A DNA stretch of 64,000 nucleotides from an uncultured Kiritimatiellota bacterium (GCA_944391085.1 CALXSE010000008.1:2437-66436), one strand, 5' to 3'; shown: positions 17,915-58,837, numbered from the stretch's first letter. Numbers and translations are program-made. Notes: a model not told the origin generated them from the letters alone.

Positions 17915-17923
17915 AGTATAGCA
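17915..17923 (-). promoter_or_regulatory. extended -10 promoter (TGCTATACT) for thiD
   Basis: Minus strand reads TGCTATACT, then a 23-nt leader with SD. Confidence 0.55.
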
Positions 17924-17939
17924 CAGGGCGGGGTGGGTT

Positions 17940-17948
17940 TGGTAAAAT
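17940..17948 (+). promoter_or_regulatory. extended -10 promoter (TGGTAAAAT), 6 nt before ribE ATG 17955
   Basis: TGGTAAAAT, aaggcc, ATG. Implies a leaderless transcript. Confidence 0.55.
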
Positions 17949-20216: not shown

Positions 20217-20261
20217 TGCACCCAACGGGAAAGCGCCCACGCGCTTCCCAAAAAACAAGAA

Positions 20262-20288
20262 AGCCCCGGCCAACCGGCCGGGGCTTTT
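20262..20288 (+). terminator. intrinsic terminator after pgi
   Basis: 10-bp stem AGCCCCGGCC/GGCCGGGGCT with a 4-nt loop, followed by TTTT. Confidence 0.8.
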
Positions 20289-20412
20289 GCTATCATAAGG
20301 GCACGCCGCGGGTGAGCCGTGGCATTCTTGCGCTTTGCGCAGACAAGTTGCCTGACTGAAACTTGGAACCTTTCACACCTGGGCAACGTGTTTGGCGGAG
20401 CGTGTCATATTC

Positions 20413-20485
20413 GGCACGCTTCCTTTTCATGTATCCAGGTAAGGCAGTTCCAAGGCCGCAGTCAGGCACGTGAAAGGAAGCGTGC
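20413..20485. repeat. imperfect inverted repeat (about 15 bp arms, 41-nt spacer) abutting the methyltransferase start
   Basis: GGCACGCTTCCTTTTCA (20413-20429) pairs with TGAAAGGAAGCGTGC (20471-20485), followed by TTTTT and ATG 20491. An outer 9-bp IR is GCCTGACTG (20350-20358) / CAGTCAGGC (20459-20467). Confidence 0.7.
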
Positions 20486-20490
20486 TTTTT

Positions 20491-33320: not shown

Positions 33321-33396
33321 ACACGGGGGCGCGAAAGCGCCCCTTTTGCTTGCGGGGGCGGGCCGTTTTTGCCACACTGGTGGGAAAGGAATCGCC

Positions 33397-34914
33397 ATGA
33401 ACCCATTCAACAGTCTTCGATTGTGCCTCCTCGCCGCCGCGCTCTGCGCGGCCGGGCCGGCCTTCGCCGCGCCCACGCCCGACGACCCCTTCCGCCCCGA
33501 CGTCGTTTACGCCGAAGGCACGGTCACGGCGACCTTCCTGCTCCTTGAGCCGGGCCAGCACATTTACGACGCGATGCTGACCTGCTCGCTCGGCGCGCCG
33601 ACCTCCAAGCCCCCCCTCGCCGGAAGCGACGAGATGGGCGGCGACTATTACGCCGACCTGGCCGAGTTCACCTGGCCCGCCGCGCCGGGGCAGACCTTCA
33701 CCCTCGGCTACCAGGGGTGCGACGCGGATCTGTGCCACATGCCCCAGGAGCTGACCTTCACCATCACCGCCGAGGGCAAGGTCGTCGAGGGCGCCGCCGC
33801 GGCGGTTTCCCCCACCCCGCCGGCGGCCGCCCCAGAGGCCGAGGCCCGGGAACGCGGCATCGCGGGCTTCGTCCCGCCGGGGGATTTCGTGGCCTTCCTG
33901 CGCGGCGAGGCCGCGGCCGGGGGCGAGACCGGCGGCGCACCGGGCTTCCTGGACGACCCGCGGGCGTGGGTCGCGGACAACGGCGTATGGCTGCTCATCG
34001 CGGTGGTCTTCGTGGGCGGGTTGCTGCTGAACCTCACGCCGTGCGTGCTGCCGATGATGCCGATCAACCTGGCCATCATCGGGGCGGGCGCGGTGGGCGG
34101 AGGCCGCCTGCGCGGGGCCCTGCGCGGCGGGGCGTACGGCCTGGGCATCGCGCTGGCTTACGGCGTGCTGGCGCTCATCCCGGCGCTCACGGGGACGGCC
34201 TTCGGGGCCGTGCAGGCGGCCTGGTGGTTCAACGCGGCCATCGCGGCGGTCTTCGTGGCGCTGGCGCTGGCGCTCTTCGACGTCTTCATGATCGACTTCA
34301 CGCGCTTCTCGGGGCCCGGCGGGGGGAAGAAGGGCGCGTTCGCGGCCTTCGTGGCCGGGGCGGTGAGCGCGGTGCTCGCCGGCGCGTGCGTCGCGCCGGT
34401 GCTCCTGGCGGTCCTCCTGCTGACGGCCGACGGCGTGGCCACGGGCGCGTGGTGGACGCTCTGCCTGCCCTTCGTGCTGGGGCTGGGGATGGCCGCGCCG
34501 TGGCCCATCGCGGGCGCGGGGCTCTCTTTCCTGCCCAGGCCCGGCGCGTGGATGACGTGGGTGAAGAAGGCCTTCGGCGTCCTCGTCCTCCTCTTCGCGG
34601 CCTATTACGTCTGGGTGGCCGTCAAGCCCTTCCTCCCCGCCGAGGGCCTCGACGGCACAGATCTCCCGGCCATCGAGGCGGCCATCGCCGAGGCCCGCGC
34701 CCAAGGCAAGCCCGTCCTCCTCGACTTCTGGGGCACCGCGTGCAAGGCGTGCGACGAGATGGAGCGCGAGACCTTCCCGGACGCCGCCGTGCAGGCCGAG
34801 CTCAAACGCTTCGCCCTCCTCAAGGTGCGGATGGATCTCTCCGACCGCGCCATCCGCCCCACGCAGGAGCGCTTCGCCATCAAGGGCCTGCCCACCTACG
34901 TCGTCATCGAGTGA
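33397..34914 (+). CDS. dsbD: thiol:disulfide interchange protein DsbD-like (N-domain + CcdA-type TM core + C-terminal thioredoxin)
   Basis: Signal peptide, TM core with LNLTPCVLPMMP and GACVAPV, C-terminal LLDFWGTACKAC (thioredoxin CxxC). Confidence 0.82.
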   Translation: MNPFNSLRLCLLAAALCAAGPAFAAPTPDDPFRPDVVYAEGTVTATFLLLEPGQHIYDAMLTCSLGAPTSKPPLAGSDEMGGDYYADLAEFTWPAAPGQTFTLGYQGCDADLCHMPQELTFTITAEGKVVEGAAAAVSPTPPAAAPEAEARERGIAGFVPPGDFVAFLRGEAAAGGETGGAPGFLDDPRAWVADNGVWLLIAVVFVGGLLLNLTPCVLPMMPINLAIIGAGAVGGGRLRGALRGGAYGLGIALAYGVLALIPALTGTAFGAVQAAWWFNAAIAAVFVALALALFDVFMIDFTRFSGPGGGKKGAFAAFVAGAVSAVLAGACVAPVLLAVLLLTADGVATGAWWTLCLPFVLGLGMAAPWPIAGAGLSFLPRPGAWMTWVKKAFGVLVLLFAAYYVWVAVKPFLPAEGLDGTDLPAIEAAIAEARAQGKPVLLDFWGTACKACDEMERETFPDAAVQAELKRFALLKVRMDLSDRAIRPTQERFAIKGLPTYVVIE

Positions 34915-34915: not shown

Positions 34916-35905
34916 GTGAACCGCAACCAGCACACCCTCGAGACCCTCCCCGTGCGGGCGGACGTCGCCGACGATCCCGCCGTCGGGCGCTTCGCGGACG
35001 CCCTCCGCGCCGTCCGCGGCGCCAGCCCCCTCACCGCCGAGAACTACCTCCGCGACCTCGGCCAGTTCGCCGCCCACGTCTGGGGCAAGCGCGGCGGGCC
35101 GCCCTTCGACTGGGCGGCGCCGGACCGTGCCGCCGCGCAGGGGTTCCTCTACGCCTACGCCCGGACGGGGGCCAAACCCACCTCCACCGCACGCAAGCTC
35201 GCCGCGCTCCGCTCCTTTTACCGTTTCCTCGTGCGCGAGGGCACGCTCGACCATTCGCCCTTCGCCGGGCTCCGGCCGCCCCGCCGCGCGCGGCCCCTGC
35301 CTACCCTCCTCACCGAGAGTGAGGTCGCCCGCCTCCTTGACGCGCCCGCCCAGGCCCTCCGAGACGCGCCCGACGGCCTTCCCCCCCTCCCGCGCTACCT
35401 GCTCCTGCGCGACCGCGCCCTGTTCGAGACCCTCTACTCCACCGGCGCGCGCCTCGCCGAGATCGCCGCCCTCACCAACGCCCGGACCGACCTCGCCGAG
35501 GGCGTCTGCCGCGTCGTCGGCAAAGGCGACAAAGAACGGATCTGCCTCCTCGGACGGCCCGCCCGCGAGGCCATCGCCGCCATGCGTGCCCAGGCCCGGA
35601 TGCTCTGGCCCCGCGCCGACGCGCCCGAACGCCCCCTCTTCCTCAACAATGCCGGCGAGGGGCTCTCCACCCGCTCCATCGAACGCTTCATGAAGCGCTG
35701 GCTCGCCGCCGCCGGGCTCCCGCCCGACCTCTCGCCGCACAAGCTGCGCCATTCCTTCGCCACGCACCTCCTCAGCCACGGGGCCGACCTGCGCGTGGTG
35801 CAGGAGCTCCTCGGCCACAACTCCCCCGCCACCACCCAAATCTACACCCACCTGGCCCCCGAACGCGTCGCGGCCACCTACCATGCCGCCCACCCCCGCG
35901 GCTGA
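34916..35905 (+). CDS. xerC: tyrosine recombinase XerC/XerD family
   Basis: GTG start 1 nt after the dsbD stop. ARLAE (Arg I), HKLRHSFATHLL, LGHNSPATTQIYTH (catalytic Tyr). Confidence 0.8.
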   Translation: MNRNQHTLETLPVRADVADDPAVGRFADALRAVRGASPLTAENYLRDLGQFAAHVWGKRGGPPFDWAAPDRAAAQGFLYAYARTGAKPTSTARKLAALRSFYRFLVREGTLDHSPFAGLRPPRRARPLPTLLTESEVARLLDAPAQALRDAPDGLPPLPRYLLLRDRALFETLYSTGARLAEIAALTNARTDLAEGVCRVVGKGDKERICLLGRPAREAIAAMRAQARMLWPRADAPERPLFLNNAGEGLSTRSIERFMKRWLAAAGLPPDLSPHKLRHSFATHLLSHGADLRVVQELLGHNSPATTQIYTHLAPERVAATYHAAHPRG

Positions 35906-37415: not shown

Positions 37416-37465
37416 GCCCGGCCTTTCCCCCACCCCACCCACTGACGGAAAAGGAGCGCGGAACC

Positions 37466-38293
37466 ATGGCAGAACCCCGCAAAATAACCATCAAGTTGCG
37501 GCCCGTCGGCGCGAAGCCCGCCGGGGCTCCCACGCCGCCCGCGCCCCCCGCCGCACCCGCGGCGGCCCCTGCCGCGCCGGCCGCCGAGGTCGGCGCGGAG
37601 GCGGCCCAACAGGCCAAGCGCCAGACCTCGCGCATCGAGTTGCCCCCGGAGCTCATCCAGCAGCCGATGAACGCGGCGAGCACGACACCCGCGCCCCCCG
37701 CCGAGCCCCCCGCGGACGCAGGCAAGGAGGCGGCCGTCACGCTCAAGCCCATCTCCTCCGACGCCGCGCCGGCCAAGGAGGAAACGCAGGCGGCGAAGTC
37801 CAAGACCGCCCGTATCGCGCTTGACTCCGTCCTCGGCGGCATCCAGGCCAACGCACCCTTGGCCAACACCACGCAGAAGACCATCAAGCTCAAGCGCGCC
37901 ACCCCCACGCCGAGCCTCAAGCCGAAGGCCTCCGCGCCCATGGCGCCGGTCGGCGCGAAGCCCGCCGATGAGGAAAAGACCATCAAGCTCAAGCGCCCCG
38001 CCACCCTCTCGCTCAAGCGCGACGCCGCCCCGGCGCCCGCCGCGGAGCCGGAGCTGGAGCCGTTGGAGAACCTGGACGACGTGCCGCTCGCGCCCCTTGA
38101 CGGGACGCCCGCCGCGCCCGCGCAGGAATCCACCGGCGCGAAGGTCTTCACCATCATCTCCGTGGTCGCGGCGTGCGCCTCCATCATCGTCACGCTGATC
38201 CTCTGCATCATCCTCCAGAAGCAGGCGGCCTCGCCGGACGGCTCCCCCGCCACCGGCAACACCCTCCATTCGCTTCCCTTCAAGAGCTTCTGA
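37466..38293 (+). CDS. P/A-rich low-complexity protein with KTIKLKR repeats and a C-terminal TM anchor
   Basis: SD AAAGGAG. RKITIKLRP, KTIKLKRATP, KTIKLKRPATLSLKR. C-terminal helix VFTIISVVAACASIIVTLILCIIL. Confidence 0.65.
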   Translation: MAEPRKITIKLRPVGAKPAGAPTPPAPPAAPAAAPAAPAAEVGAEAAQQAKRQTSRIELPPELIQQPMNAASTTPAPPAEPPADAGKEAAVTLKPISSDAAPAKEETQAAKSKTARIALDSVLGGIQANAPLANTTQKTIKLKRATPTPSLKPKASAPMAPVGAKPADEEKTIKLKRPATLSLKRDAAPAPAAEPELEPLENLDDVPLAPLDGTPAAPAQESTGAKVFTIISVVAACASIIVTLILCIILQKQAASPDGSPATGNTLHSLPFKSF

Positions 38294-38305: not shown

Positions 38306-38346
38306 ACAAAGCGGCCGCCGACCCGTAAGGTCGGCGGCCGCTTTGT
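38306..38346. terminator. bidirectional intrinsic terminator (between the P/A-rich gene and the convergent histidine kinase)
   Basis: ACAAAGCGGCCGCCGACC cgtaa GGTCGGCGGCCGCTTTGT, an 18-bp perfect stem. Confidence 0.8.
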
Positions 38347-38354: not shown

Positions 38355-39773
38355 TCAGTCGCGGAGAAGCGCGCGCAGGGCCTCGGGCTGTTGGGGCCAG
38401 AGGCTGACCGCCACGCGCATCCGGGCGTATCCGGCGCGGCGGCTGGGCTCCATACCCGGCGAAAGGATCAGGATGGGCGTGGGGGCGAGGCGCGCGTCGC
38501 CGCGGATTTGGCACACGATGTCTCCCAGGCAGGCCTCGGGGAGGGAGCCGTCGAGGACAAAGCGGGCGGGCGTATGACCCTCGCACCCTTTGGGGATGTC
38601 CAGGGCCTCACGGTCGACCCGAACGCTCAGGCCGATGTCCTCGGCGGCCTTGGAGAGCGCATCGATGAACGCCTCGTCGCCGGAGACGACGACCAGAAGC
38701 GGGCCCGGGCAGGCGGGCAGCGCGACGGTGACGCGGGTGCCGCAATCGGCCCCCGGGACGGGGGATTCGATGGTGAGCGTGCCGCCGTGGAGCGCGACGA
38801 TCTCGCGGACGATGGAGAGCCCCAGGCCCGTGCCGGCCACTTGGTCGCCCACGCGGAAATAACGCTGGGAAACGCGCGGAAGGGCCTCCGGCGGGATGCC
38901 GATGCCGTTGTCGTCCACGCGGAGGCAGGCCTTCCCGCCATCCTCGAAGACGGAGGCCACGATGGCGCCACCCTCGGGGGTGTATTTGATGGCGTTGGAG
39001 AGAATGTTGAAGCAGACGCGCTCGAGTTTGTGGCGGTCGCCGTTCACATAGCGCTCTTTGGGCGCGGGGAGGACGGTAAGCGTCTGGCGCTTGGCCTGGG
39101 CCTGGATAAAAAGGGCGTCCGCGCTCTCGCCGAGAAGGCGGACAAGCGGCACGAACCCCTTGCGCAGGGTGAGGGTGCCGTTTTCCATCTGGCGAAGATC
39201 GAGGATGTCGTTGACGGTGGCCAGCAGACGCTTCACGTCCACCTGGAGCCGCGAGACGTACGCCTGCGCCTTTTCGGGGAGGGTGCCGCAGAGCCCGCGG
39301 GACATGTTGGCCAGCGCGTAGGACATCGAGGTAAGCGGGGTGCGGAGCTCGTGCGAGACGTTGGAGACGAACTCCATGCGGTCACGGATGGCGGCGCGGA
39401 GGCGCTCGTTGGCCTCCTCCAGGCGATGCAGGCCCTCGACGCGGGCGGAGACGTCGCGAAGCGTGGCGAAGACGCGGCCGTCATCCAGGCGATGGAACAC
39501 GCACTCGGCCACGAAAACGCTGCCGTCAAGCCTGGAGACTGGGTTCTCGAAGACGACGAAGGGAACCGCGGTGAGGCGCTCGCGGAGGTAAGTGGGGAAC
39601 TCGGCGGAAAGGTCGTGGTCATTGGGGAAGGAGGCGGCGTCACGCCCCAGCAAGGCCTCGCGGCCCGGCGCGCGGAGAAGCTCGAGGGCACGGGCGTTGC
39701 AATCGACCACGCGGAAGTCCGCGTCGGCGATGAGGGCCGCCTCCCCCAACGCGTCAAGGGGAATCTCAGTCAT
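38355..39773 (-). CDS. PAS-domain hybrid sensor histidine kinase with C-terminal receiver-like domain
   Basis: H-box SHELRTPL, N-box NILSNAIKYT, G-boxes DDNGIGI and GTGLGLSIV. C-terminal LLVVVSGDE...FVLDGSLP...ILILS is REC-like. No TM segment. Confidence 0.82.
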   Translation of the reverse strand: MTEIPLDALGEAALIADADFRVVDCNARALELLRAPGREALLGRDAASFPNDHDLSAEFPTYLRERLTAVPFVVFENPVSRLDGSVFVAECVFHRLDDGRVFATLRDVSARVEGLHRLEEANERLRAAIRDRMEFVSNVSHELRTPLTSMSYALANMSRGLCGTLPEKAQAYVSRLQVDVKRLLATVNDILDLRQMENGTLTLRKGFVPLVRLLGESADALFIQAQAKRQTLTVLPAPKERYVNGDRHKLERVCFNILSNAIKYTPEGGAIVASVFEDGGKACLRVDDNGIGIPPEALPRVSQRYFRVGDQVAGTGLGLSIVREIVALHGGTLTIESPVPGADCGTRVTVALPACPGPLLVVVSGDEAFIDALSKAAEDIGLSVRVDREALDIPKGCEGHTPARFVLDGSLPEACLGDIVCQIRGDARLAPTPILILSPGMEPSRRAGYARMRVAVSLWPQQPEALRALLRD

Positions 39774-41598
39774 GGGTCGGCGCCCCCTTCATCGGCCATT
39801 TGCCAAGCAACTCGACGTCTTCCGGGCCCAGCTCGTAGAGGATGGGCCTGCCCTGGATCAGCGCCGGCGCGGCGCCCGTCCCCGGATCCGGGTCGCCGAC
39901 CAGCAGGACGCGTCGCAGGCCGCTCTCCGCCGCCGCGTCAAGGTCAAGCGTCAGCCGCAGCCACGGCCGCTCAAGGCCATAGGGGCGCAGCGCGCCGAGC
40001 GTCACGGGCGCATCGCGCAGCACCCGAACGGCCTTGAGGTCGGCGAAACGGGTGAGCCAGGCGTCCAGCACGGCGGCGTCCACGTAGAGGCCCGCGGGGC
40101 TCTCGGTCTCCCAATCCAACACGGCTCCGGAACGGCGGGCGGCGCACTGCGACCCGTCTCGCCGGAGCACGGCGATGCGGCGGATCTGCTCGGCCGGGAC
40201 GGAAAGGACGGTGCGGTCGACCAGCAGATGCTGAAGCCCGCCCGCCACCATCGGCTCCGGCACGGCGTCGCGGCGAAGGCGGTAGAGCCTTTCCTGGTCG
40301 GCGCGCCACACCAGGAGCCCGTCCTCGCCCTCGGCGGGGAAAAACGCCAACGTGATCGCGTCGCCTTCCCCATCGGACAGCGTAAGGGCGCTGAGCGGCT
40401 CGCCCGCCGGGCGGGCAACGCCGACGAACTCCCCCGTAAGGGCGGAGAGACGCGCGAGCAGGGCCTCGACGGCGGCGGCGTCCGCGGGAAGCGCCATGGG
40501 CATGGCGAGCCGCCACGCGCCATGCTCCCGGGCCAACTCGACGGGCACGTCCTCCCCGCGCAGGCGAAGCGACAAGCGCCGGATACCCGCCAGCGCGCCG
40601 ACCACAGGCAAATCCCGGACGTCCGCGGCAAGCGGCCCCTCCGCGCCAAACAGCGCCGGCAGGGCCTCCGACACGGAAACGACGGCGGTGGCGCCATTGA
40701 GCAGGCAGAAAACGGCGCCCGGGCGCGCCGGATCCGAACGGCCAAAACGCAGGGTCACGGGCGCGCCCAGCCCACGGATGCGAAGCGAGACGCGCAGGGC
40801 AGACTCCTCGTCCAGCGCGCAGGTGCCGAGCACGGCATCCGGCACGGGGCGGGCCCCCTGCGCGGGCGGCGCGCCATCGGCGGGACGGACGTAGGACAGG
40901 ATCGCGTCCGGCGCGGTGAGCGCGTCAAGCGCGGCCCGGACGACCTCGCCGGGGAGCTCGAAGGGGAAAGGACGCGAGACCTCCCAGTGCCCACCCGCCT
41001 TGCGGGAGGCGCGCGTGAACGGCGTGCCCGGCGCGCGCCACTCAAGCGCCTGGATGCGCTCCGGCGACACCGGGAGAAGCGCCTTGGCGCGAAGCCCCTC
41101 CGCGGTCGACGGCAGGCGGGAGACGACATCGGCCTCGACGGCCACCAGATTCCCATCCACCTCAGCCAGGGTCTGGGCCAGCGCCATCGGCTGTTCGCCG
41201 CCGAACCCCCGCACATAGGTACGCTCGGCCGTGCGCACGACGAGGCGGCGCGCCACGCGGAAAGCGCTCCCCGCCGAAGGCCCCAGGCGGGCACGGACGC
41301 GAAAGGCGCACACCGCGTCAAGAAAGGCGGAAACGGCCCCGGCATCGCACAGCGCCCCCGGATAGGGCCGCTCCATGCGCCAGAACTCCCCCTCCCGGAC
41401 AAGCGTCACAGGCGTGGCCGTGCCGTCGTCGGCAAGGATCTCCCACGACAGCGAGGCCACAGCCTCCTGCGAAACCGGGAAGAGCGGCTCGCCCACGGCC
41501 ACCGGCCTGACGGGACGCAGGAACCGTTCGGCCACGAGCCCGGCGGCCAGCAGGATGACCACCGCGAGCAAAATGAGGAAATTGCGCCCGAATCTCAT
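39766..41598 (-). CDS. DUF4340-like protein (GldG-associated), N-terminal TM anchor
   Basis: MRFGRNFLILLAVVILLAAGLV is the anchor. Its position immediately after a GldG-like gene, with an ATGA overlap, is typical for DUF4340. The assignment is by context and architecture only. Confidence 0.5.
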   Translation of the reverse strand: MRFGRNFLILLAVVILLAAGLVAERFLRPVRPVAVGEPLFPVSQEAVASLSWEILADDGTATPVTLVREGEFWRMERPYPGALCDAGAVSAFLDAVCAFRVRARLGPSAGSAFRVARRLVVRTAERTYVRGFGGEQPMALAQTLAEVDGNLVAVEADVVSRLPSTAEGLRAKALLPVSPERIQALEWRAPGTPFTRASRKAGGHWEVSRPFPFELPGEVVRAALDALTAPDAILSYVRPADGAPPAQGARPVPDAVLGTCALDEESALRVSLRIRGLGAPVTLRFGRSDPARPGAVFCLLNGATAVVSVSEALPALFGAEGPLAADVRDLPVVGALAGIRRLSLRLRGEDVPVELAREHGAWRLAMPMALPADAAAVEALLARLSALTGEFVGVARPAGEPLSALTLSDGEGDAITLAFFPAEGEDGLLVWRADQERLYRLRRDAVPEPMVAGGLQHLLVDRTVLSVPAEQIRRIAVLRRDGSQCAARRSGAVLDWETESPAGLYVDAAVLDAWLTRFADLKAVRVLRDAPVTLGALRPYGLERPWLRLTLDLDAAAESGLRRVLLVGDPDPGTGAAPALIQGRPILYELGPEDVELLGKWPMKGAPTHD

Positions 41599-42980
41599 TC
41601 GCGCCTCCTCGTGACAAGCCACAGCACGAAGCAAAGGGCCAACGGCACCCCCAACGAAACCAGCAGGAAGTCCAGTCGCCACGCCCGCGCGTCCTGCCCC
41701 ACGCGGAGCACCCCCGCGCCGGAACGCGCCCCGCTGCCGGAAAGCCCGGTGAGCCAACGCACGGCATTGACCGCAAGGTCGCGGTTCGGCGAGGCATGGT
41801 CCAACACCAGGCGGTTGGCGGCGAAGGCCGCCTCGCCGACGGCGATGACGCGGCCGGGGCGGAAGGCCAGGTCGGCATCGACACGGCTCCCGCGCTCCGC
41901 CGCCGCCATCACGGCCACGGGGCCTTCATCCGCATCGGCGGCGGGGAGCACGTCAAGCTCGGCAAGGACGGTGGCGGAAATGTCGCGGGCAGGATCCACC
42001 AAAAGGGCCCGCGGCGCACAAAAGGTGACACGCGCCGAGGCGGCGGCCAGCTCGCGGGTGACGGGATGGGCGCCGGAGAGCCGATCGGTGAGGCCGACGT
42101 CGCCCTCGCCGCGGCGGGCAGGGGTTCGCGGGGCGTCGCCCACGCGGATGCCCCAGCGCGCCAACAACGGCCCGAGGCCCGCGTCGCCGGAGGCCGGCAG
42201 CGCGCAGAAGAGGCGTCCTCCCTGGTCCAGCCAATCGAGGAGGACGGCCCGCTCGGCGGAGGTGACGGGATAACGCGGGCTGACGATCAGGAGCGCGCCA
42301 AGGTCTTCCGGGAGCCCGCCGTCCGGGGCGGTGGCGTCAAGGGTCAGGGGGCGGATCCTGCAGCCCTCGTTCTCAAGCGCCCGCCGCAGGCCGGAGAACC
42401 CGGTGAGCGGGTCGGTGCCGTCGAAGGGCGGCTCGCCGTGCCCGGTGAGCCAGCCGATCTCAACGCCCTCGGAGCGGGTCAGGCGCGCCAGCGCGGCGGT
42501 GATGGCACTGTCGGCCTCGGCCGGGTCATAGGCGCCGTCGACGGCGGAAAGGAGCGCGGCCTCGTGGACGAAGACGCGGCGCCCCGCCTGGCGGAAGAGG
42601 ATGCCCGGCCCCTCGGCCCCCTGCCCCATCAGGCGCTCGGCGGCGCCGGCGTCGACGCGCGGGTCGACGTAGGCCAGCTCGAGGGTCGCCCCGGCGACGT
42701 CGCGCGAGGCCTGGGCGAACGTGCGCAACAGACGCCCGACCGGCGCGGCGGCGGGCGATTCGGCGGGGAGGACGCACGTGACGGAGATGACGCCGGCGGT
42801 GTCCGTAAGCGTGGCGCGCCCCCGTTCGGAGACTTCGACCCCGGCCCCGAAGGCGCTCAGGTCAAGGGTGGGGCGCAGGCGGGCCAGGAGCGCGTCGGCC
42901 AACACCGCGGCCAGGGCGGCGAGCGCCACGCAGACGAACGCGCCGAGGAACCAGGCGCGCTGGCCTTTGGACAGTCTCAT
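41595..42980 (-). CDS. GldG-like / ABC-transporter auxiliary (ABC_transp_aux) family protein
   Basis: N- and C-terminal TM helices flank a periplasmic domain. Architecture and motifs (GHGE, ALLIVSP...L..WL..GG) are as in GldG. Confidence 0.55.
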   Translation of the reverse strand: MRLSKGQRAWFLGAFVCVALAALAAVLADALLARLRPTLDLSAFGAGVEVSERGRATLTDTAGVISVTCVLPAESPAAAPVGRLLRTFAQASRDVAGATLELAYVDPRVDAGAAERLMGQGAEGPGILFRQAGRRVFVHEAALLSAVDGAYDPAEADSAITAALARLTRSEGVEIGWLTGHGEPPFDGTDPLTGFSGLRRALENEGCRIRPLTLDATAPDGGLPEDLGALLIVSPRYPVTSAERAVLLDWLDQGGRLFCALPASGDAGLGPLLARWGIRVGDAPRTPARRGEGDVGLTDRLSGAHPVTRELAAASARVTFCAPRALLVDPARDISATVLAELDVLPAADADEGPVAVMAAAERGSRVDADLAFRPGRVIAVGEAAFAANRLVLDHASPNRDLAVNAVRWLTGLSGSGARSGAGVLRVGQDARAWRLDFLLVSLGVPLALCFVLWLVTRRRE

Positions 42981-43957
42981 GGGGACTCCTTTTCGGATTC
43001 AGGGAGCAGGCGCACCCGCGGAGGCGTGATCTCCACGCGGCTGACACGGTTGGAGCAGGGCAGCACGATGAGGGGTTCGCACGGCTCCTCGCCGGGGCGC
43101 TCGCCCACCAGGGCCACCACCCCGGCGGGGTCGATGGATTCCAGCTCGCGGCTGGCCCCCCACGCGGTGACCTCGACGGTCTCGGCGTCGGGGCGGTACC
43201 GGCGACCGGTGGCGGACTGCATCACGTACACGGGGACTTCCGGGAAAATGCGCGTGGCGTCCTCGCGGACGATACGCACCTCGGCGCGGACGGTGTCGGG
43301 GCGGAGCGTCCAGTCGCCGCGGTTCCCCGGGGGCATCACGCGGAGCGTCGTCTGGAAGCTGGCGGGACGGTTGGAAACGTCGAGCAGCGAGGTGGAGAGG
43401 CGCTCGGCGGGGTCTATCTCCTTGAGGAGCGCGCCCGAGCCGATGACCTCGACCGTCTTTGGCTCGAGCGTCACCTGCACCAGGCCATAGGCCGGCGCAC
43501 CGATCACCACGGGCTCATCCACGGCAAAGACGCGGGCCTCACGCGAATCAAAGGTCGCCTCCAGCTCCGTCGGCTCCAAGGAGACCACGCGCAGGCCGTC
43601 GTCGCAATCCACGTCGCCGCGCGACACGCGCACCTTCATGGAAGACTCCCCGGGCGGCGGCTGCGCCAGGCTCAGGTGGACGCGCGGCGGCGCGGACCCC
43701 GGCATGGAAAGCTGACGGATGGCCGTCTCTGACCCACGGAAGGTCACGCGCACCACGCCCGGCGAGAGGCTGGTGAGCGCCTGCGCGCCCTCGGCGGTCT
43801 CCGCGTCCACGGACAACGTCAGGGTCTGCGTGTAGCTGATGGAGCGGCGGACGCCGAAAAAGACGATGAGCGCCACGGCCAGGGCCGCGAGCTTCCACGG
43901 CCAGTTGTGGCGCAGGGCCTGCCACAGGGACAGACGGGTTTGGCGGAGGTCACGCAT
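42977..43957 (-). CDS. cdaR: YbbR-domain protein, CdaR-like regulator of diadenylate cyclase
   Basis: N-terminal anchor WKLAALAVALIVFFGV followed by repeated beta-rich YbbR-like units. Sits immediately downstream of cdaA with an 8-nt overlap. Confidence 0.7.
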   Translation of the reverse strand: MRDLRQTRLSLWQALRHNWPWKLAALAVALIVFFGVRRSISYTQTLTLSVDAETAEGAQALTSLSPGVVRVTFRGSETAIRQLSMPGSAPPRVHLSLAQPPPGESSMKVRVSRGDVDCDDGLRVVSLEPTELEATFDSREARVFAVDEPVVIGAPAYGLVQVTLEPKTVEVIGSGALLKEIDPAERLSTSLLDVSNRPASFQTTLRVMPPGNRGDWTLRPDTVRAEVRIVREDATRIFPEVPVYVMQSATGRRYRPDAETVEVTAWGASRELESIDPAGVVALVGERPGEEPCEPLIVLPCSNRVSRVEITPPRVRLLPESEKESP

Positions 43958-44801
43958 GGCGGGGCGGCTCCTTCCCGACGAAAGGCCTCAGGAACCACGG
44001 CACCGCGTGGCGCGGGCCAAAGACCAGGCGGTAGAAATCGCGTTGCTTCTCGGCGGGCACGAAGGCCGCGCGCAACAGGCGCTCCAGCTGACGGTCGCTC
44101 AGGTTCCGCAGCAAACTCCCCTCGCGCGCCACCGAAATCTGCCCGCGCTCCTCGGACACCACCAAAATCAGCGCGTCGCACTCCGCCGAAAGCGTCAGGG
44201 CCGCCCGATGGCGCGTCCCCATCCCCTCCAGGCGCAGCTCGTTGTCGATCGGCAGGATGCACCGCGCCGCGCGGATACGGTCGCCGCGCAGGATGACCGC
44301 GCCGTCGTGCAACGGCAAAGGCGGCGTGAAGATGCTGATCAGCAACTCCTCCCCCATCAAGGCGTCCAGCTTCGTCCCCGTCTCGCACCACCTGTCCAAC
44401 GCCACCTCGCGCTCCACCACGATCAACGCGCCCAACCGCCGCGTGGCCAGCCCCCGCGCCGAGCGCACCAGCTGCTCCGCCGGCGTCTCCGGCAGGCGCC
44501 CCTGGAGCAACTGCACCGCGGCGCTCCGCCCCAAGAGCGAGAGCGCCCGCCGCAGTTCCGGCTGGAAGACCACCAGGAGCGCCAGCATCAGCACGACGGA
44601 GACCCACCGCAGCACCACGTTGATCACGTCCAGGTCGAGGAGGGACGTCACCAGGAAAATCATCAGGAAAAGCGCCGCCACCCCCAGCAGCATCTGCGCC
44701 GCGCGCGTCCCCTTCAACACCATGAACCCATAATAAATGCACGTGGTCAGCAGCGCCACCTGCACCACGTCCATCACGTTCGGCCACCACGCGCTAAGCA
44801 T
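43950..44801 (-). CDS. cdaA: diadenylate cyclase (c-di-AMP synthase), membrane-bound CdaA type
   Basis: Three N-terminal TM helices. DisA_N motifs LHDGAVIL, GTRHRAALTLSAECDALILVVSEERG. Confidence 0.9.
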   Translation of the reverse strand: MLSAWWPNVMDVVQVALLTTCIYYGFMVLKGTRAAQMLLGVAALFLMIFLVTSLLDLDVINVVLRWVSVVLMLALLVVFQPELRRALSLLGRSAAVQLLQGRLPETPAEQLVRSARGLATRRLGALIVVEREVALDRWCETGTKLDALMGEELLISIFTPPLPLHDGAVILRGDRIRAARCILPIDNELRLEGMGTRHRAALTLSAECDALILVVSEERGQISVAREGSLLRNLSDRQLERLLRAAFVPAEKQRDFYRLVFGPRHAVPWFLRPFVGKEPPRHA

Positions 44802-45648
44802 TCACCGCCTCCTGCGCCCGCAGGAACGCCCACAGCGCCCCCACCGTCTCGGCCACGTCATGCACCCGCACCACGTCCGCCCCGCACGCCGCCGCCCACA
44901 ACGCCGCGCCGACGCTCGCCGGCCCCCGCCCCGCAGCCTCCGCGCCGCCCAAGAAACGCTTCCGCGAGGCCCCCACCACAAACGGCGCCTCCGCCGCCGC
45001 GAACCGCCCCGTCGCCCCCAGGAGCCGCCATGAATCCTCGTGCGTCTTCTCGAAGCCAAGCCCCGGATCCCACGCGATCTGCCGCCGATCCACCCCCGCG
45101 GCCTCCAGGCGCGCCGAGGCCGCCGACAGCGCCGCCGACACCTCCGCCACGACGTCCCGCGCCTCCTCGACCCCCTCCATGCCCCGCGGCGTCCACCCCC
45201 GCGCATGGGTCAGCACATACCCCGCGCCGGAGGCCGCCAACACCTCCGCCATGCCAAGGTCAGGATCCAGCCCCGCCACGTCGTTGACGATGTCCGCGCC
45301 GGCCTCGAGCGCCGCGCGCGCCACCGCCGCGTGGCGCGTATCCACCGAGATCACCCCCTCCGGGCAAGCCTCACGCAAGCCTCGCACCACCGGCACGACC
45401 CGCGCCGACTCCACCTCCGGCGGCACGGCCTCCGCGCCGGGGCGTGTCGATTCCCCGCCCACGTCCACGATGGCCGCCCCGGCCCGGAAGCACGCCGCGC
45501 CGCGCGCCACGGCGTCGGCGGCGGAACGCGCGCGGCTGCCCGCGAAGAAAGAATCCGGCGTCACATTCACGATGGCCATCACCAAAGGCCCGCGCAGCCG
45601 CACGGCCCTTCCACGGCACATCCAAACCTTTTCCCTCTTCCTCTGCAT
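44794..45648 (-). CDS. folP: dihydropteroate synthase
   Basis: VMAIVNVTPDSFF..., DVGGESTRPGA, SVDT, NDV, DPGLGF, GASRKRF, VRVHDV. Start chosen at ATG 45648 by promoter spacing (alternatives 45621 and 45687). Confidence 0.9.
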   Translation of the reverse strand: MQRKREKVWMCRGRAVRLRGPLVMAIVNVTPDSFFAGSRARSAADAVARGAACFRAGAAIVDVGGESTRPGAEAVPPEVESARVVPVVRGLREACPEGVISVDTRHAAVARAALEAGADIVNDVAGLDPDLGMAEVLAASGAGYVLTHARGWTPRGMEGVEEARDVVAEVSAALSAASARLEAAGVDRRQIAWDPGLGFEKTHEDSWRLLGATGRFAAAEAPFVVGASRKRFLGGAEAAGRGPASVGAALWAAACGADVVRVHDVAETVGALWAFLRAQEAVNA

Positions 45649-45655
45649 ACGCAGA

Positions 45656-45664
45656 AGTATAGCA
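45656..45664 (-). promoter_or_regulatory. extended -10 promoter (TGCTATACT), 7 nt before folP ATG 45648
   Basis: Minus strand reads TGCTATACT, tctgcgt, ATG. Confidence 0.55.
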
Positions 45665-50120: not shown

Positions 50121-51797
50121 ATGAGCGAACACGCCCGCAAGACCCTCGTCATCGGCCACCGCAACCCGGACACCGATTCCATCGTCTCGGCCATCGCCTA
50201 TGCCGAGCTCAAGCGCCAGCAGGGCTGGAGCCGCGTCCTCCCCGCCCGCGCCGGCCGCCTCACCCCGCAGACCGAATACATCCTCAAGCGCTTCGGCGTC
50301 GAGGCCCCCGAGTTCATCCCGGACCTGCTCCCCAAGGTCGAGCACTGCATGCAGGAGGGCTCCCCCATCACCGTCTCGGCGGACACCGCGCTCTGGGACG
50401 CGCTCGAGCTGATGGACAAGAACCGCCTCCCGGCCGTCCCCGTCGTCGGCCGCGACGGCCGCTACCGCGCCTTCCTCACCCACAACACCTTCACCGAGAA
50501 CATCGTCCACAAGACCGACCCCCACCGCAAAGCCATCATCCCCACCAGCATCGCCCTCCTCTCGCGCACCCTCCGCGCCCAGCCCCTGCTCACCTTCGAC
50601 GCCGATGCCGTCGTCAAATCCCGCATCCTCGTCGCCGGCTCCACCGCCGCGGCCTTCGAGCAGGTCCTCAAAACCGAGCTCCCCACCAACGCCATCGCCC
50701 TCGTCGAGAACCGCGACTCCATCCTCGAGCTCTGCATCAACCACAAGGTCCGCGCCATCGTCCTTACCTCCGGCCTCCCCCTCTCCAAGGCCTTCTTCAA
50801 CCGCGCCCGCGAGGCCAACATCTCCGTCCTCATCTCCCCCTACGACATCGCCTCCACCGTCTTCCTCACCCTCTATTCCATGCCCGTGGGCGCCCTCTCG
50901 ACCGACGACACCAAGCCCGTCCGCGCCGACGACCTCGTCCGCGACGTCCTCCCCGCCGTCCAATCCTCCCCCGCCCGCGCCCTCCCCGTCGTCGGCGAGG
51001 GCGACCGCGTCGTCGGCGTCATCAACGAGCGCGACCTCTACCGCCAGCCCAACGTCGACGTCATCATGGTCGACCACAACGAGCTCTCCCTCGCCGTCGA
51101 GGGCCTCGACCAGTTCCGCGTCATCGAGATCATCGACCACCACAAGCTCGGCAACTTCCCCACCCACGACCCCATCGACTTCATCAACCGCACCGTCGGC
51201 TCCACCGCCACCGTCGTCGCCTGCCTCTACCAGGAGCGCAAGGCCACCCTCACCCCCGCCGTGGCGGGGCTCCTCCTCTCGGCCATCATCACCGACACCC
51301 TCGCCCTCCGCTCCCCGACCGCCACCGACGTCGACCGAGACATGGCCGAGTACCTCGCCGGCCTGCTCAACCTCGAGGTCGACGACCTCGCCCACGACAT
51401 CTTCTCGCACGCCTCCCGCCTCACCGACCTCGACACCGACCGCATCCTCGGCATGGACTCCAAGGAGTACAACGAATGCGGCGTCGCCTTCACCGTCGCC
51501 CAGATCGAGACCGGCACCACCGACGAGCTCACGCCCCGCCTCCACGGCCTCCTCGGCGCCCTCGACGCCAAATGCCAGGCCCGCGGCCACTTCTTCGCCG
51601 CCCTCATGGTCACCGACCTCACCGCGCTCAACTCCACCCTCCTCGTCGCCGGCGACCCCCGCTTCATCGCCAAAATCCCATTCCCCCGCGTCGAGGGCGA
51701 TGCCAACGTCTTCCTCTGCAAAGGCATCATGTCCCGCAAAAAGCAGCTCCTCCCCCTCCTCCTCGAGCAGCTCAACGCCCTCCTCGGCCACCAGTAG
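50121..51797 (+). CDS. CBS-domain family II (DHH) inorganic pyrophosphatase
   Basis: LVIGHRNPDTDSIVSAIAYAELK (DHH), CBS pair, DRTGG-like insert, MVDHNE, IIDHHK, DHHA2 C-terminus. Confidence 0.85.
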   Translation: MSEHARKTLVIGHRNPDTDSIVSAIAYAELKRQQGWSRVLPARAGRLTPQTEYILKRFGVEAPEFIPDLLPKVEHCMQEGSPITVSADTALWDALELMDKNRLPAVPVVGRDGRYRAFLTHNTFTENIVHKTDPHRKAIIPTSIALLSRTLRAQPLLTFDADAVVKSRILVAGSTAAAFEQVLKTELPTNAIALVENRDSILELCINHKVRAIVLTSGLPLSKAFFNRAREANISVLISPYDIASTVFLTLYSMPVGALSTDDTKPVRADDLVRDVLPAVQSSPARALPVVGEGDRVVGVINERDLYRQPNVDVIMVDHNELSLAVEGLDQFRVIEIIDHHKLGNFPTHDPIDFINRTVGSTATVVACLYQERKATLTPAVAGLLLSAIITDTLALRSPTATDVDRDMAEYLAGLLNLEVDDLAHDIFSHASRLTDLDTDRILGMDSKEYNECGVAFTVAQIETGTTDELTPRLHGLLGALDAKCQARGHFFAALMVTDLTALNSTLLVAGDPRFIAKIPFPRVEGDANVFLCKGIMSRKKQLLPLLLEQLNALLGHQ

Positions 51798-52069: not shown

Positions 52070-52230
52070 GGAAAACGGCAAGAGTATACCAAAGTCCAAG
52101 CGTTTGGCGCAAGGCCTTTTTTGCGCTTTCCCACACTGGGGCAAGCGCGCCCGGCCGCGACGAGGCGCCCGCCATGCCGGGGCGACGGGCATCGACAGAG
52201 GGTTTCCCGCGAACGGCGGGCAGAGGGGGT

Positions 52231-52259
52231 TTGCATGGGGCGCGGGGAAATGGTAGAGT
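52231..52259 (+). promoter_or_regulatory. sigma70-like promoter for PMM paralog 2 (-35 TTGCAT, 17 nt, extended -10 TGGTAGAGT)
   Basis: TTGCAT (52231-52236), 17 nt, TAGAGT (52254-52259) preceded by TG. Confidence 0.55.
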
Positions 52260-52311
52260 ATTGGCGTTGTGGGACGCCTCAAGCGGCCCTTACCCAAACA
52301 AAGGAATTGCC

Positions 52312-53637
52312 ATGAGCGGAATCTTCAAGGCTTACGACATTCGCGGCATCTATGGGCAGGATCTCACGGAGGCGGTGGCCTACGACATCGGCCGCGCCTA
52401 CGTCACCCACACCCACGCCAAAAAGGTGATTTTGGGGCGCGACTGCCGCCCGCACTCGGTGCCGTTGCAAGAGGCGCTGACGCGCGGCATCACCGAGCTG
52501 GGCGCGGACGTGGTGGACATCGGCCTCTGCTCGACGCCGATGAACTACTACGCGAACGGCTCGCTGGGCGCGGACGGCTCGATCATGATCACGGCCTCGC
52601 ACAACCCCGCGGAATGGAACGGCTTCAAGCTCTGCCGCGCCCAGGCGGTGCCGATCTCAGGCGCCACGGGTATCGCCGACATCGAGCGCATCGTCACGGA
52701 AAAGGCCTTCGACGCGCCCGCGGCGAAGCCCGGCACGGTCACGGCGCACGACATCCTCCCGGCCTACCGCGCGCACATCCGCCCGGTGATGGCCTTCGCC
52801 CGCAAGCCGCGCCTGGCCATCGACTACGCCAACGGCATGGGCATCCTCGAGGCGCAGACCTTCATGGACGCCATCGAGCAGACGGCGCTCTACGGCGACA
52901 TCGACGGTACCTTCCCCAACCATGAGGCCAACCCCCTCCACCACGCCACCCTGGCCAAGCTGCAGGAGACGGTGCGCCAGGGCGGCTACGACTTCGGCGT
53001 GGCCTTTGACGGCGACGCCGACCGCGCCGGCTTCGTCGACGAAAAGGGCGGGATCATCCCCATGGATTTGGTGACGGCCCTCATCGCCCAGGACGTGCTC
53101 AAGCGCGAAAAGGGCGTCATCTTCTACGACCTGCGCTCCAGCCGCGTGGTCAAGGAAACCATCGAGGCCGCCGGCGGCACGCCGATGATGAGCCGCGTGG
53201 GCCACGCCTTCATCAAGGCCCAGATGCGCGAGCACAACGCCATCTTCGCCGGCGAGCTCTCCGGGCACTACTATTTCCGCGACAACTACGTGGCCGAAAG
53301 CTCCTCCATGGCCGCCATCGCGCTGGCGAACATCGTCACCCAGAGCGGCAAGCCGCTCTCCGAGCTCATCGCCCCCCTGCGCAAGTACTGGTGCTCCGGC
53401 GAAATCAACTCCAAGGTCGCGTGCGACCCGCAGGAAATCCTCGCCAAGCTGAAGGCCAAGTACGCCGACGGCCACGTCTTCGAGCTCGACGGCGTGAGCG
53501 TGGAGTATCCCACCTGGTGGTTCAATGTCCGTTGCTCCAACACCGAGCCGCTCGTCCGCCTCAACCTCGAGAGCACCGCCAGCCAGGCCGAGATGGAGGC
53601 CCGCCGCGACGAGGTGCTCGCCCTCATCCGCGCCTGA
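52312..53637 (+). CDS. phosphomannomutase/phosphoglucomutase (paralog 2)
   Basis: MSGIFKAYDIRGIYG, TASHNPAEWNGFK, FDGDADRAGF, GELSGHYYF. SD AAAGGA. Confidence 0.87.
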   Translation: MSGIFKAYDIRGIYGQDLTEAVAYDIGRAYVTHTHAKKVILGRDCRPHSVPLQEALTRGITELGADVVDIGLCSTPMNYYANGSLGADGSIMITASHNPAEWNGFKLCRAQAVPISGATGIADIERIVTEKAFDAPAAKPGTVTAHDILPAYRAHIRPVMAFARKPRLAIDYANGMGILEAQTFMDAIEQTALYGDIDGTFPNHEANPLHHATLAKLQETVRQGGYDFGVAFDGDADRAGFVDEKGGIIPMDLVTALIAQDVLKREKGVIFYDLRSSRVVKETIEAAGGTPMMSRVGHAFIKAQMREHNAIFAGELSGHYYFRDNYVAESSSMAAIALANIVTQSGKPLSELIAPLRKYWCSGEINSKVACDPQEILAKLKAKYADGHVFELDGVSVEYPTWWFNVRCSNTEPLVRLNLESTASQAEMEARRDEVLALIRA

Positions 53638-57112: not shown

Positions 57113-58111
57113 TTACTTGGAGGCTTCCTCGACGGCGACGGCGACGGCGACGGTGGCGCCGACCATGGGGTTGTTGCCCATGCCGATGAGGCCCATCATC
57201 TCGACGTGCGCGGGCACGGAGGAGGAGCCGGCAAACTGCGCGTCGGAGTGCATGCGGCCCATGGTGTCGGTCATGCCGTAGGAGGCGGGGCCGGCGGCCA
57301 TGTTGTCGGGGTGGAGGGTGCGGCCGGTGCCGCCGCCGGAGGCGACGGAGAAGTACTTCTTGCCGGCGAGGACGCATTCCTTCTTGTAGGTGCCCGCGAC
57401 GGGGTGCTGGAAGCGGGTGGGGTTGGTGGAGTTGCCCGTGATGGAGACGTCCACGCCCTCCTGCCACATGATGGCGACGCCTTCGCGGACGTCGTCGGCG
57501 CCGTAGCAGCGGACCTTGGCGCGGGGGCCGTCGGAGAAGGCGATCTCGTTGGTGATGGCCAGCTTGCCGGTGAAGTAGTCGAACTCGGTCTCCACGAAGG
57601 TGAAGCCGTTGATGCGGCTGATGATGTAGGCCGCGTCCTTGCCCAGGCCGTTGAGGCAGACGCGCAGGGGCTCCTTGCGGACCTTGTTGGCCTTCATGGC
57701 GATGCCGATGGCGCCCTCGGCGGCGGCGAAGGATTCGTGCCCGGCCAGGAAGCAGAAGCACTTGGTCTCCTCGCGCAGGAGCATGGCGCCCAGGTTGCCG
57801 TGGCCCAGGCCGACCTTGCGGTCGTCGGCGACGGAGCCGGGGATGCAGAAGGCCTGGAGGCCCTCGCCGATGGCCTCGGCGGCATCGGCGGCCTTGGTGC
57901 AGCCCTTCTTCAGCGCGATGGCCGCGCCGACGGTGTAGGCCCACTTGGCGTTCTCGAAGCAGATCTTCTGGATGTTCTCGGTGATCTCGTAGGGGTCGAA
58001 GCCCTTGGCCTTGCAGATCTCGCGGCATTCCTCGATGGACTTGATGCCGTACTTGTCGAGGACGGGCTGGATCTGGCCGATGCGGCGTTCGTAGGATTCA
58101 AAGAGTGCCAT
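57113..58111 (-). CDS. GGGtGRT-motif protein (conserved family of unknown function)
   Basis: 332 aa containing SGGGTGRTLHP. C-terminal G/M-rich tail MMGLIGMGNNPMVG. I recall a family named for this motif, but I cannot verify it here. Confidence 0.7.
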   Translation of the reverse strand: MALFESYERRIGQIQPVLDKYGIKSIEECREICKAKGFDPYEITENIQKICFENAKWAYTVGAAIALKKGCTKAADAAEAIGEGLQAFCIPGSVADDRKVGLGHGNLGAMLLREETKCFCFLAGHESFAAAEGAIGIAMKANKVRKEPLRVCLNGLGKDAAYIISRINGFTFVETEFDYFTGKLAITNEIAFSDGPRAKVRCYGADDVREGVAIMWQEGVDVSITGNSTNPTRFQHPVAGTYKKECVLAGKKYFSVASGGGTGRTLHPDNMAAGPASYGMTDTMGRMHSDAQFAGSSSVPAHVEMMGLIGMGNNPMVGATVAVAVAVEEASK

Positions 58112-58123
58112 GGTGCTTCCTCC

Positions 58124-58837
58124 TTACTCGTGGCGGGGGTCGATGGACTTGACGGCGCCCTGCTCCTCGGTCACGCGGCCGTAGGTGCCGGTGCAGGCCT
58201 TGAGCGCCTCGTTGGCGTCCTGGCCCTTCTTGACGGCCTCCATGAACTTGCCCAGGTGGACGAACTCGTAGCCGCAGACCTCGCTGTTCTTGTCCAGGAA
58301 GATGCGCTTGACGTAGCCCTCGGCCATCTCCAGGTAGCGCACGCCCTTCTGCTTGGTGGAGAACATGGTGCCGACCTGCGAGCGCAGGCCCTTGCCCAGG
58401 TCTTCCAGGCCGGCGCCGATGGGCAGGCCGCCCTCGGAGAAGGCGCTCTGGGTGCGCCCGTAGACGATCTGGAGGTAGAGCTCGCGCATGGCGGTGTTGA
58501 TGGCGTCGCACACAAGGTCGGTGTTCAGCGCCTCCTGGATGGTCTTGCCGGGGAGGATCTCGGCGGCCATGGCGGCGGAGTGGGTCATGCCGGAGCAACC
58601 GATGGTCTCGACGAGGGCCTCCTGGATGACGCCTTCCTTGACGTTCAGCGTCAGCTTGCAGGTGCCCTGCTGCGGCGCGCACCAGCCCACGCCGTGCGTC
58701 AGGCCGGAAATGTCCTTCGTCTCATAGGCCTTCACCCACTTCCCCTCCTCGGGGATCGGGGCGGGCGCGTGCTTGGCGCCCTTGGCGACCGGGATCATGT
58801 GCTCGACTTCGCTCGAGCAGGCGTAGGGACAACTCAT
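58124..58837 (-). CDS. NifU/IscU-N-terminal-like Fe-S scaffold-like protein (extended, 237 aa)
   Basis: GTCKLTLNVKEGVIQEALVETIGCSGMTHSAAMAAEILPGKTIQEAL parallels the IscU core (CGD..L.L.V..G.I.DA.F.TFGCGSAIASSS...GKT..EA). Strong SD AAAGGAGG. Confidence 0.6.
   Translation of the reverse strand: MSCPYACSSEVEHMIPVAKGAKHAPAPIPEEGKWVKAYETKDISGLTHGVGWCAPQQGTCKLTLNVKEGVIQEALVETIGCSGMTHSAAMAAEILPGKTIQEALNTDLVCDAINTAMRELYLQIVYGRTQSAFSEGGLPIGAGLEDLGKGLRSQVGTMFSTKQKGVRYLEMAEGYVKRIFLDKNSEVCGYEFVHLGKFMEAVKKGQDANEALKACTGTYGRVTEEQGAVKSIDPRHE

Follow-up and report, generated by a model that had tools for sequence, protein, structure and literature searches.

Six overlapping minus-strand genes in a 64,000-nucleotide (nt) stretch of DNA from an uncultured Kiritimatiellota bacterium (GCA_944391085.1 CALXSE010000008.1:2437-66436; the whole stretch is called the window below) join the synthesis of cyclic di-AMP (c-di-AMP) to a GldG-like protein, a DUF4340 protein, and a PAS-type histidine kinase. 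On balance we favor the reading that this is a composite leaderless-type operon, in which the GldG-like and DUF4340 proteins assemble periplasmically into a motor-less envelope scaffold or sensor that is associated with the kinase and co-produced with the c-di-AMP synthase. Judging from gene order in relatives, the conserved unit across genomic contexts appears to be the trio of a GldG-like protein, a long DUF4340 protein, and a PAS kinase without adjacent ATP-binding cassette (ABC) transporter genes, and the fusion of this trio to folP-cdaA-cdaR appears to be clade-specific. The trio is taken as a conserved new unit because it stands behind ispF-cysS-tmk in sister lineages, while the next relatives have the canonical ABC order. 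The link of the trio to c-di-AMP looks secondary; the trio may act directly in the control of c-di-AMP, but the data do not support this.

The operon and its elements are as follows.

45656-45664, minus strand: extended −10 promoter element TGCTATACT, read from the sequence, 7 nt 5′ of the folP ATG (45648)
44794-45648, minus strand: folP, dihydropteroate synthase, 284 aa (Pfam Pterin_bind, 1.5e-70)
43950-44801, minus strand: cdaA, membrane-anchored diadenylate cyclase, 283 aa (Pfam CdaA_N and DAC)
42977-43957, minus strand: cdaR, YbbR-domain protein, 326 aa, with one N-terminal transmembrane (TM) helix at residues 23-41
41595-42980, minus strand: GldG-like protein, 461 aa, with N- and C-terminal TM helices around a periplasmic GIFT domain
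39766-41598, minus strand: long DUF4340 protein, 610 aa, with an N-terminal TM anchor and four beta-rich repeat modules
38355-39773, minus strand: soluble PAS-HisKA-HATPase_c histidine kinase, 472 aa (Pfam PAS_4, HisKA, and HATPase_c)
38358-38711, minus strand: receiver-like domain at the C-terminus of the kinase (residues 355-472; orthologue profile against PDB)
38306-38346, no strand assigned: GC-rich hairpin with a 19-bp stem, between the kinase stop and a convergent plus-strand gene

Conservation of the six-gene operon in the clade of the window

The six open reading frames (ORFs) span 38355-45648 and follow one another, in the order of transcription, as the genes for folP, cdaA, cdaR, the GldG-like protein, the DUF4340 protein, and the histidine kinase, with junction overlaps of 8, 8, 4, 4, and 8 nt from folP to the kinase. 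An earlier sequence-only reading had given the same ORFs, coordinates, and overlaps as a single unit, and profile searches upheld its assignments of the products (dihydropteroate synthase, CdaA, YbbR/CdaR, GldG-like, DUF4340, and a PAS-HisKA-HATPase kinase).

In a scan of GTDB species representatives, the linkage of cdaR with the GldG-like, DUF4340, and kinase genes was conserved in 17 genomes, all of uncultured Kiritimatiellia or 'Candidatus Spyradenecus' from animal guts, and is not unique to the present genome. The relatives were read within ±8-10 kb of the locus, and the genome of the window itself was seen as 64 kb. The six genes stand in identical order on every contig that is long enough, and the flanking genes vary. 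An overlap of 8 nt is typical of most loci at both folP/cdaA and cdaA/cdaR, with cdaR always directly 3′ of cdaA in the orthologous loci. The overlap is 4 nt at cdaR/GldG-like in most loci, 4 nt at GldG-like/DUF4340 wherever both genes are present, and 4 or 8 nt at DUF4340/kinase in most loci. The recurrence of these junctions over ~20 loci with 37-95% protein identity is far beyond chance. Close homologues of the GldG-like protein number 52 at 49-92% identity, after which the identity drops to 29%. A search for CdaA homologues is uninformative on the context outside the clade, because all 120 matches listed are within it (at least 68% identity).

The operon could also be a dedicated c-di-AMP control device, in which CdaA, CdaR, the GldG-like protein, and the DUF4340 protein form an envelope complex that, with the cytoplasmic PAS kinase, senses the envelope state and sets the synthesis of c-di-AMP. 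The five overlaps, that of cdaR and the GldG-like gene included, are kept over ~20 loci down to 31-41% identity, and the four proteins are membrane-anchored, and their periplasmic or cytoplasmic domains could meet. Moreover, the GldG-like protein has a short cytoplasmic tail at its N-terminus in which Q7 and W10 are invariant within the clade, and CdaR-type proteins modulate CdaA and envelope integrity in a Gram-negative bacterium (PMC9259658). We nevertheless consider this explanation unlikely, in view of the contexts found outside the clade.

Genomic contexts beyond the clade

An exhaustive hidden Markov model search with the GldG-like profile recovered relatives of graded similarity, whose genomic contexts sort into three classes. 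Class A is the order folP-cdaA-cdaR-GldG-like-DUF4340-kinase and comprises the clade of the window and a more distant lineage (P0193), in which order and overlaps hold at 41% (GldG-like) and 31% (DUF4340) identity. Class B is the order ispF-cysS-tmk-GldG-like-long DUF4340-kinase, found in four separate lineages, with neither cdaA/cdaR nor ABC genes at the locus. The DUF4340 and kinase genes are seen in three of these lineages, the contig of the fourth stopping inside the gene after the GldG-like one. At one class B locus, the kinase is a full-length orthologue of the window kinase (48% identity, receiver-like tail included), and tmk and the GldG-like gene share 4 nt. Class C, found in the next relatives, is the order ABC_tran-ABC2_membrane-GldG-long DUF4340 (604-628 aa) without a kinase; in one locus of this class (L038), the permease alone is seen upstream. 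In the distant phyla, represented by Lentisphaeria and Binatia, the canonical ABC order is accompanied by a short DUF4340 protein. The earlier expectation of an ABC ATPase/ABC-2 permease pair in front of GldG/DUF4340 genes thus agrees with the closest relatives outside the ABC-less group, and neither of these transporter genes is present in the window.

In classes A and B alike, no promoter belonging to the trio itself is recognizable, and its genes come last in a housekeeping operon. The trio thus has at least two such arrangements, of which the attachment to folP-cdaA-cdaR is one. These contexts bear directly on the control device described above: the GldG-like gene, together with the DUF4340 and kinase genes where the contig allows, occurs without adjacent cdaA/cdaR in the four ispF-cysS-tmk lineages. 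The overlap of the GldG-like gene with its upstream gene is not specific for a CdaR/GldG-like partnership, since one class B locus shows the same 4-nt overlap with tmk. Q7 and W10 are not conserved in the class B lineages, and no known c-di-AMP-binding domain was found in the kinase with Pfam. The claim of the sequence-only reading that the envelope pair and the kinase are built to control c-di-AMP is therefore undercut by class B, where the genes of the trio stand behind ispF-cysS-tmk and not beside cdaA/cdaR.

In a neighbor-joining tree of the GldG-like proteins, class A groups together, and classes B and C are not resolved from each other. A metagenome scan with a mixed GldG-like alignment gave 80 loci, 74 of which are redundant human-gut contigs (28% partial match; the two loci examined are canonical ABC-linked GldG); six loci were informative.

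The neighborhoods of two relatives should also be noted. In L003 (class A), the histidine kinase gene is directly followed by ligA and a gene for a Ser/Thr protein kinase (14638-17945); in L120 (canonical), these two genes come directly before ABC-ABC2-GldG-DUF4340, on the opposite strand (1270-5390). This neighborhood, being common to both, suggests an ancestral chromosomal position for the GldG/DUF4340 pair.

GldG-like and DUF4340 proteins

The GldG-like protein matches ABC_transp_aux (PF09822) with 43.5 bits (gathering cutoff, 34.7), though only partially, at profile positions 3-116 of 288, and DUF4350 with 38.9 bits (cutoff, 30.4). Its TM helices at residues 14-32 and 438-456 give the two-TM topology of GldG. 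DUF7088, the N-terminal domain of canonical GldG, was not detected in this protein by Pfam at E ≤ 10, and is present in the GldG proteins of two relatives (L021 and L022). An AlphaFold2 model made from 14 orthologues has a predicted local distance difference test (pLDDT) score of 73.6. The best Foldseek match of the model is the GIFT domain of IFT52 (1e-9, target TM-score 0.72-0.76), followed by OST48 (6e-7) and then by class-I glutamine-amidotransferase-like folds, and the family profile also matches IFT52 in PDB by sequence (1e-3). The likeness of the periplasmic domain to IFT52 and OST48 is at the fold level only (15-18% identity), and the cellular contexts of these proteins, eukaryotic intraflagellar transport and an oligosaccharyltransferase subunit, respectively, are unrelated to that of the GldG-like protein. 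Many relatives in the profile search (P0201, P0204, and others) are 680-740 aa long and match from about residue 250, and may represent fusions of an ABC-2 permease to GldG.

The DUF4340 protein matches PF14238 in five stretches (5e-14, 53.3 bits against a gathering cutoff of 25) and has a TM helix at residues 6-24. Its AlphaFold2 model (pLDDT 85.8) consists of four repeated strand-helix-strand modules. Foldseek found no credible neighbor of the model in PDB (top TM-scores below 0.2, with low probabilities), and a sequence search against PDB gave nothing. The alignment with the long DUF4340 proteins of canonical ABC loci is near full-length, with 26% identity. DUF4340 has been reported as an essential domain in Verrucomicrobium spinosum (PMC12283558), and an AlphaFold-Multimer study of SAR11 predicted DUF4340, GldG-type, and ABC proteins as one complex (bioRxiv 10.64898/2025.12.11.693642).

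It is conceivable, though in our judgment improbable, that the pair still serves an ABC-2 exporter as accessory subunits and that the genes for the ATPase and permease were relocated in the genome, with the place of the pair in the operon and the neighboring kinase reflecting only co-expression or drift of the gene order. The retained GldG topology and GIFT fold, the full-length homology of the DUF4340 protein to the long form in intact ABC loci, and the occurrence of canonical loci in closely related lineages would all fit such a split transporter, and the genome outside the 64-kb window could hold the missing genes. However, tblastn with canonical proteins found no ABC ATPase or ABC-2 permease homologue in the 64 kb, and none lies within 8-10 kb of any of ~25 ABC-less loci. 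The ABC_transp_aux match is reduced to the first 116 of the 288 profile positions, and DUF7088 escapes detection. Furthermore, one orthologous kinase accompanies the ABC-less state in two genomic contexts; this points to an altered functional partnership more than to random scattering.

Histidine kinase and its C-terminal tail

The kinase matches HisKA (PF00512, 5e-16) and HATPase_c (PF02518, 9e-26), and its translation contains the phospho-His box as SHELRTPL. No TM helix is predicted in it. The sequence-only reading had also assigned a REC domain to its C-terminus, which did not stand in that form: the last 118 residues have no Pfam match even at E ≤ 10. A profile of 15 orthologous tails, however, matches mainly REC domains in PDB (RpaA, 7e-5; CheY homologues, ~1e-3), and an invariant Asp (D408 of the kinase) aligns with the REC phospho-acceptor. 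The acidic pair varies and is missing in several orthologues, and Arg or Ser takes the place of the conserved Lys. We therefore describe the tail as a putative divergent receiver-like domain, possibly a pseudo-receiver. The label of hybrid kinase for this protein is not established. The absence of a response regulator nearby, which had been remarked on earlier, was confirmed among the ORFs Pfam-scanned from ~21 to 61 kb.

folP-cdaA-cdaR module

The folP product scores 261.8 bits with the dihydropteroate synthase model TIGR01496 (cutoff, 162.6). CdaA carries the DAC domain (PF02457, 1.6e-37) and the N-terminal three-helix membrane domain of its family (CdaA_N, PF19293, 1e-7), with TM or hydrophobic helices at residues ~10-77, and its score with the equivalog model TIGR00159 is 192.2 bits (cutoff, 188.8). 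The DGA and RHR motifs are found in the translation as HDGAVIL and GTRHRAA. In CdaR, YbbR (PF07949) is matched in two stretches with 35.1 bits (cutoff, 22.3), which together with the single N-terminal TM helix characterizes it as a CdaR protein; the NCBIfam models gave no match to it, and a sequence search against PDB gave nothing.

In Firmicutes, the cdaA-cdaR-glmM operon encodes the cyclase CdaA, the YbbR-domain regulator CdaR, and the inhibitor GlmM. The present operon resembles it in that CdaA is directly followed by an overlapping single-pass YbbR protein, but differs in that folP precedes cdaA and that the GldG-like, DUF4340, and kinase genes, with no glmM, follow cdaR. No glmM was found among the ORFs scanned from ~21 to 61 kb. 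The only PGM/PMM-family gene in the window, at 52174-53637 on the opposite strand, was considered as glmM and rejected, as its product fails TIGR01455 (172 bits against 447.55). This mutase gene and that for a CBS-DRTGG-DHH-DHHA2 manganese-dependent pyrophosphatase (50121-51797), both on the plus strand, lie 4.5-8 kb upstream of the operon. The DHH protein is of the pyrophosphatase type (DHHA2), not a GdpP/DhhP-type c-di-AMP phosphodiesterase.

The sequence-only reading had called folP-cdaA-cdaR a known arrangement, and it may be a widespread one; the searchable literature did not confirm this. Full-text searches yielded nothing on folP-cdaA linkage and nothing tying GldG or DUF4340 to c-di-AMP, the latter in keeping with the earlier impression that the link is undescribed. 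The synteny documented there is that of folP and glmM alone, for Proteobacteria (bioRxiv 10.1101/2023.11.22.568328).

Comparison with ABC-2 exporters and accessory-controlled kinases

With GldA/GldF/GldG-type ABC-2 exporter loci that contain DUF4340, the GldG-like protein shares the two-TM topology, the ABC_transp_aux/DUF4350 signature, and the GIFT fold, and the 4-nt overlap by which DUF4340 follows GldG is the same. The differences are the absence of the ATPase and permease genes from the window and, in the protein itself, the partial profile match with no DUF7088 detected. In addition, the canonical GldG/DUF4340 loci examined have no kinase, whereas here a kinase follows the pair.

Several kinases are controlled by accessory membrane proteins encoded with them (YycH/YycI-WalK, LiaF-LiaS, and BceAB-BceS). 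As in these systems, the kinase gene here is conserved beside genes for extracytoplasmic membrane-anchored proteins, and the kinase has no envelope-facing sensor domain of its own. WalK, LiaS, and BceS are, however, membrane kinases that contact their partners through TM helices, while the kinase of the operon is TM-less and has no adjacent response regulator. Their mechanism is not directly applicable here, because the kinase has no TM segment. What is new in comparison with the known systems is the ABC-less trio, together with its clade-specific joining to the operon of the cyclase; the CdaA/CdaR module and the GldG/DUF4340 pair are of known kinds.

Start and end of the operon

The G+C content of the window is ~70%. 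All internal starts of the operon are preceded, within the preceding gene, by a GGAG-type Shine-Dalgarno motif, whereas the folP start has none. A leaderless-type promoter had been placed here by the sequence-only reading, and the extended −10 box indeed ends 7 nt before the folP ATG. Among the 17 orthologous loci read (near-duplicates counted), 14 have a spacing of 7-9 nt from box to ATG and three a longer one, and the N-terminus predicted from the ATG at 45648 (MQ.K...VW) is conserved among orthologues at the protein level. A more divergent lineage (L030) keeps the −10 box, but has a ~45-nt leader with a Shine-Dalgarno motif before folP. The geometry of the operon start fits a leaderless-type mRNA.

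Extended −10 boxes (TGnTAnAnT) 6-7 nt before an ATG are also found at 3492 (plus strand), 14356 (plus), 17940 (plus), and 57029 (minus), and the ORFs behind them encode 214-376 aa. Since the same geometry precedes these four other genes of the window, leaderless starts appear to be common in this organism beyond folP.

In a subclade (L003, L012, L014, L016, and L019), a conserved GC-rich inverted repeat (CGCGC...GCGCG) lies ~20-50 nt 5′ of the folP −10 box and spans a −35-like hexamer (TGGACA or TAGACA) 17 nt upstream of the box. This repeat, which could be an operator, is not in the folP promoter of the window itself. The divergent neighbor of folP is a gene for a TMEM260-like glycosyltransferase with TPR repeats, whose start is ~100 nt away.

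The unit appears to be unbroken. A consensus scan found no sigma-70-like promoter within the six genes, and the terminator-like stems inside the unit are near chance in number (9 against 5.5 ± 2.2 expected) and all weak (5-8 pairs). The strong terminator proposed for the end of the operon was upheld in one part: the hairpin at 38306-38346 is very stable (ΔG −46.5 kcal/mol, z −8.6; 0 of 200 shuffles fold as well), whereas its U-tract is weak, being short, interrupted (UUUGUGU), and partly inside the stem, and the consensus terminator scan gave no call. The hairpin is a probable bidirectional terminator. Rfam gives no riboswitch or other RNA element in the operon, its single match in the window being a tRNA outside the operon.

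The gene that converges on this hairpin (37463-38293, plus strand) lies 3′ of pyrH-frr and encodes a Pro/Ala-rich membrane protein of 276 aa. This protein has one TM helix, at its C-terminus, matches nothing in Pfam or NCBIfam, and is conserved in L004 and L018, the closest relatives.

Proposed role of the trio

The composition of the operon can be explained by two modules of different age in one leaderless-type operon. The first would consist of the housekeeping dihydropteroate synthase, the membrane protein CdaA, and the extracytoplasmic YbbR-domain regulator CdaR. The second would be the Kiritimatiellia-specific trio, in which the GldG-like protein and the four-repeat DUF4340 protein are periplasmic and the PAS kinase is cytoplasmic. 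Clearly, the envelope pair goes back to an ABC-2 exporter (ATPase, permease, GldG, and DUF4340), of which it made up the accessory subunits. In the present lineage, the pair is no longer neighbored by the ATPase and permease genes, and the kinase gene follows it instead. The GldG-like and DUF4340 proteins may still form a periplasmic assembly, by analogy with the complex predicted for their canonical relatives. Such a motor-less assembly would act as an envelope scaffold or sensor, and its production, possibly also its state, would be tied to the kinase. Through its promoterless attachment to the cdaA operon, the trio would be co-expressed with c-di-AMP synthesis in a fixed proportion. In the clade of the window, the trio may also act on CdaA/CdaR directly, although the data do not require this.

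Several points weigh against this explanation. There is no obvious physical route from the periplasm to a kinase that is free of TM segments, and the very short tails that the envelope proteins extend into the cytoplasm also speak against a mechanism of simple contact. Genes for an ABC-2 ATPase and permease could lie in another part of the genome, of which 64 kb was seen. The neighbor-joining tree leaves the monophyly of the ABC-less GldG-like forms unsettled. Finally, the clade-wide 4-nt overlap of cdaR and the GldG-like gene is also to be expected from a true functional link to c-di-AMP.

A bolder proposal is that the pair has been exapted as a motor-less envelope sensor that signals to the PAS kinase and, in the Ca. 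Spyradenecus clade, to CdaA/CdaR. We give this little credence; if true, it would constitute a new input pathway coupling outer-envelope status to c-di-AMP synthesis, and the first function assigned to DUF4340 outside transport.

To our knowledge, GldG and DUF4340 are widespread proteins to which no molecular function has been ascribed, and we know of no signal for CdaR in diderm bacteria. The locus bears on how envelope signals set the activity of CdaA, especially in diderms. It belongs to a natural series that leads from the intact ABC-2/GldG/DUF4340 locus through the ABC-less pair with a kinase to the trio fused to cdaA-cdaR, and that separates the accessory pair from the transporter and links it to two signaling enzymes. 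Even if co-expression were all that joins the modules, a GldG/DUF4340 pair persists, conserved, without an adjacent transporter, and an uncultured gut lineage seems to begin a whole operon with a leaderless-type mRNA. The payoff rests on heterologous or structural work, because the organisms are uncultured.

Other features of the window

PADLOC gave no meaningful match, and a defense-system reading was set aside. Elsewhere in the window, the G+C content falls to 0.587 in the 20-22 kb bin (20001-22525), against ~0.70 in the rest. An ORF at 21350-22525 (plus strand) encodes GmrSD_N and HNH endonuclease domains and is probably a horizontally acquired restriction or defense gene. A gene at 34916-35905 (plus strand) encodes a XerC/XerD-type tyrosine recombinase (Phage_integrase and SAM-like N domain) and starts 1 nt after a DsbD-thioredoxin fusion gene (33346-34914). 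At 57113-58837 (minus strand), a gene for a GGGtGRT-family protein (PF14057, 2e-198) stands beside one for a NifU-like protein, the two forming a highly conserved gene pair.

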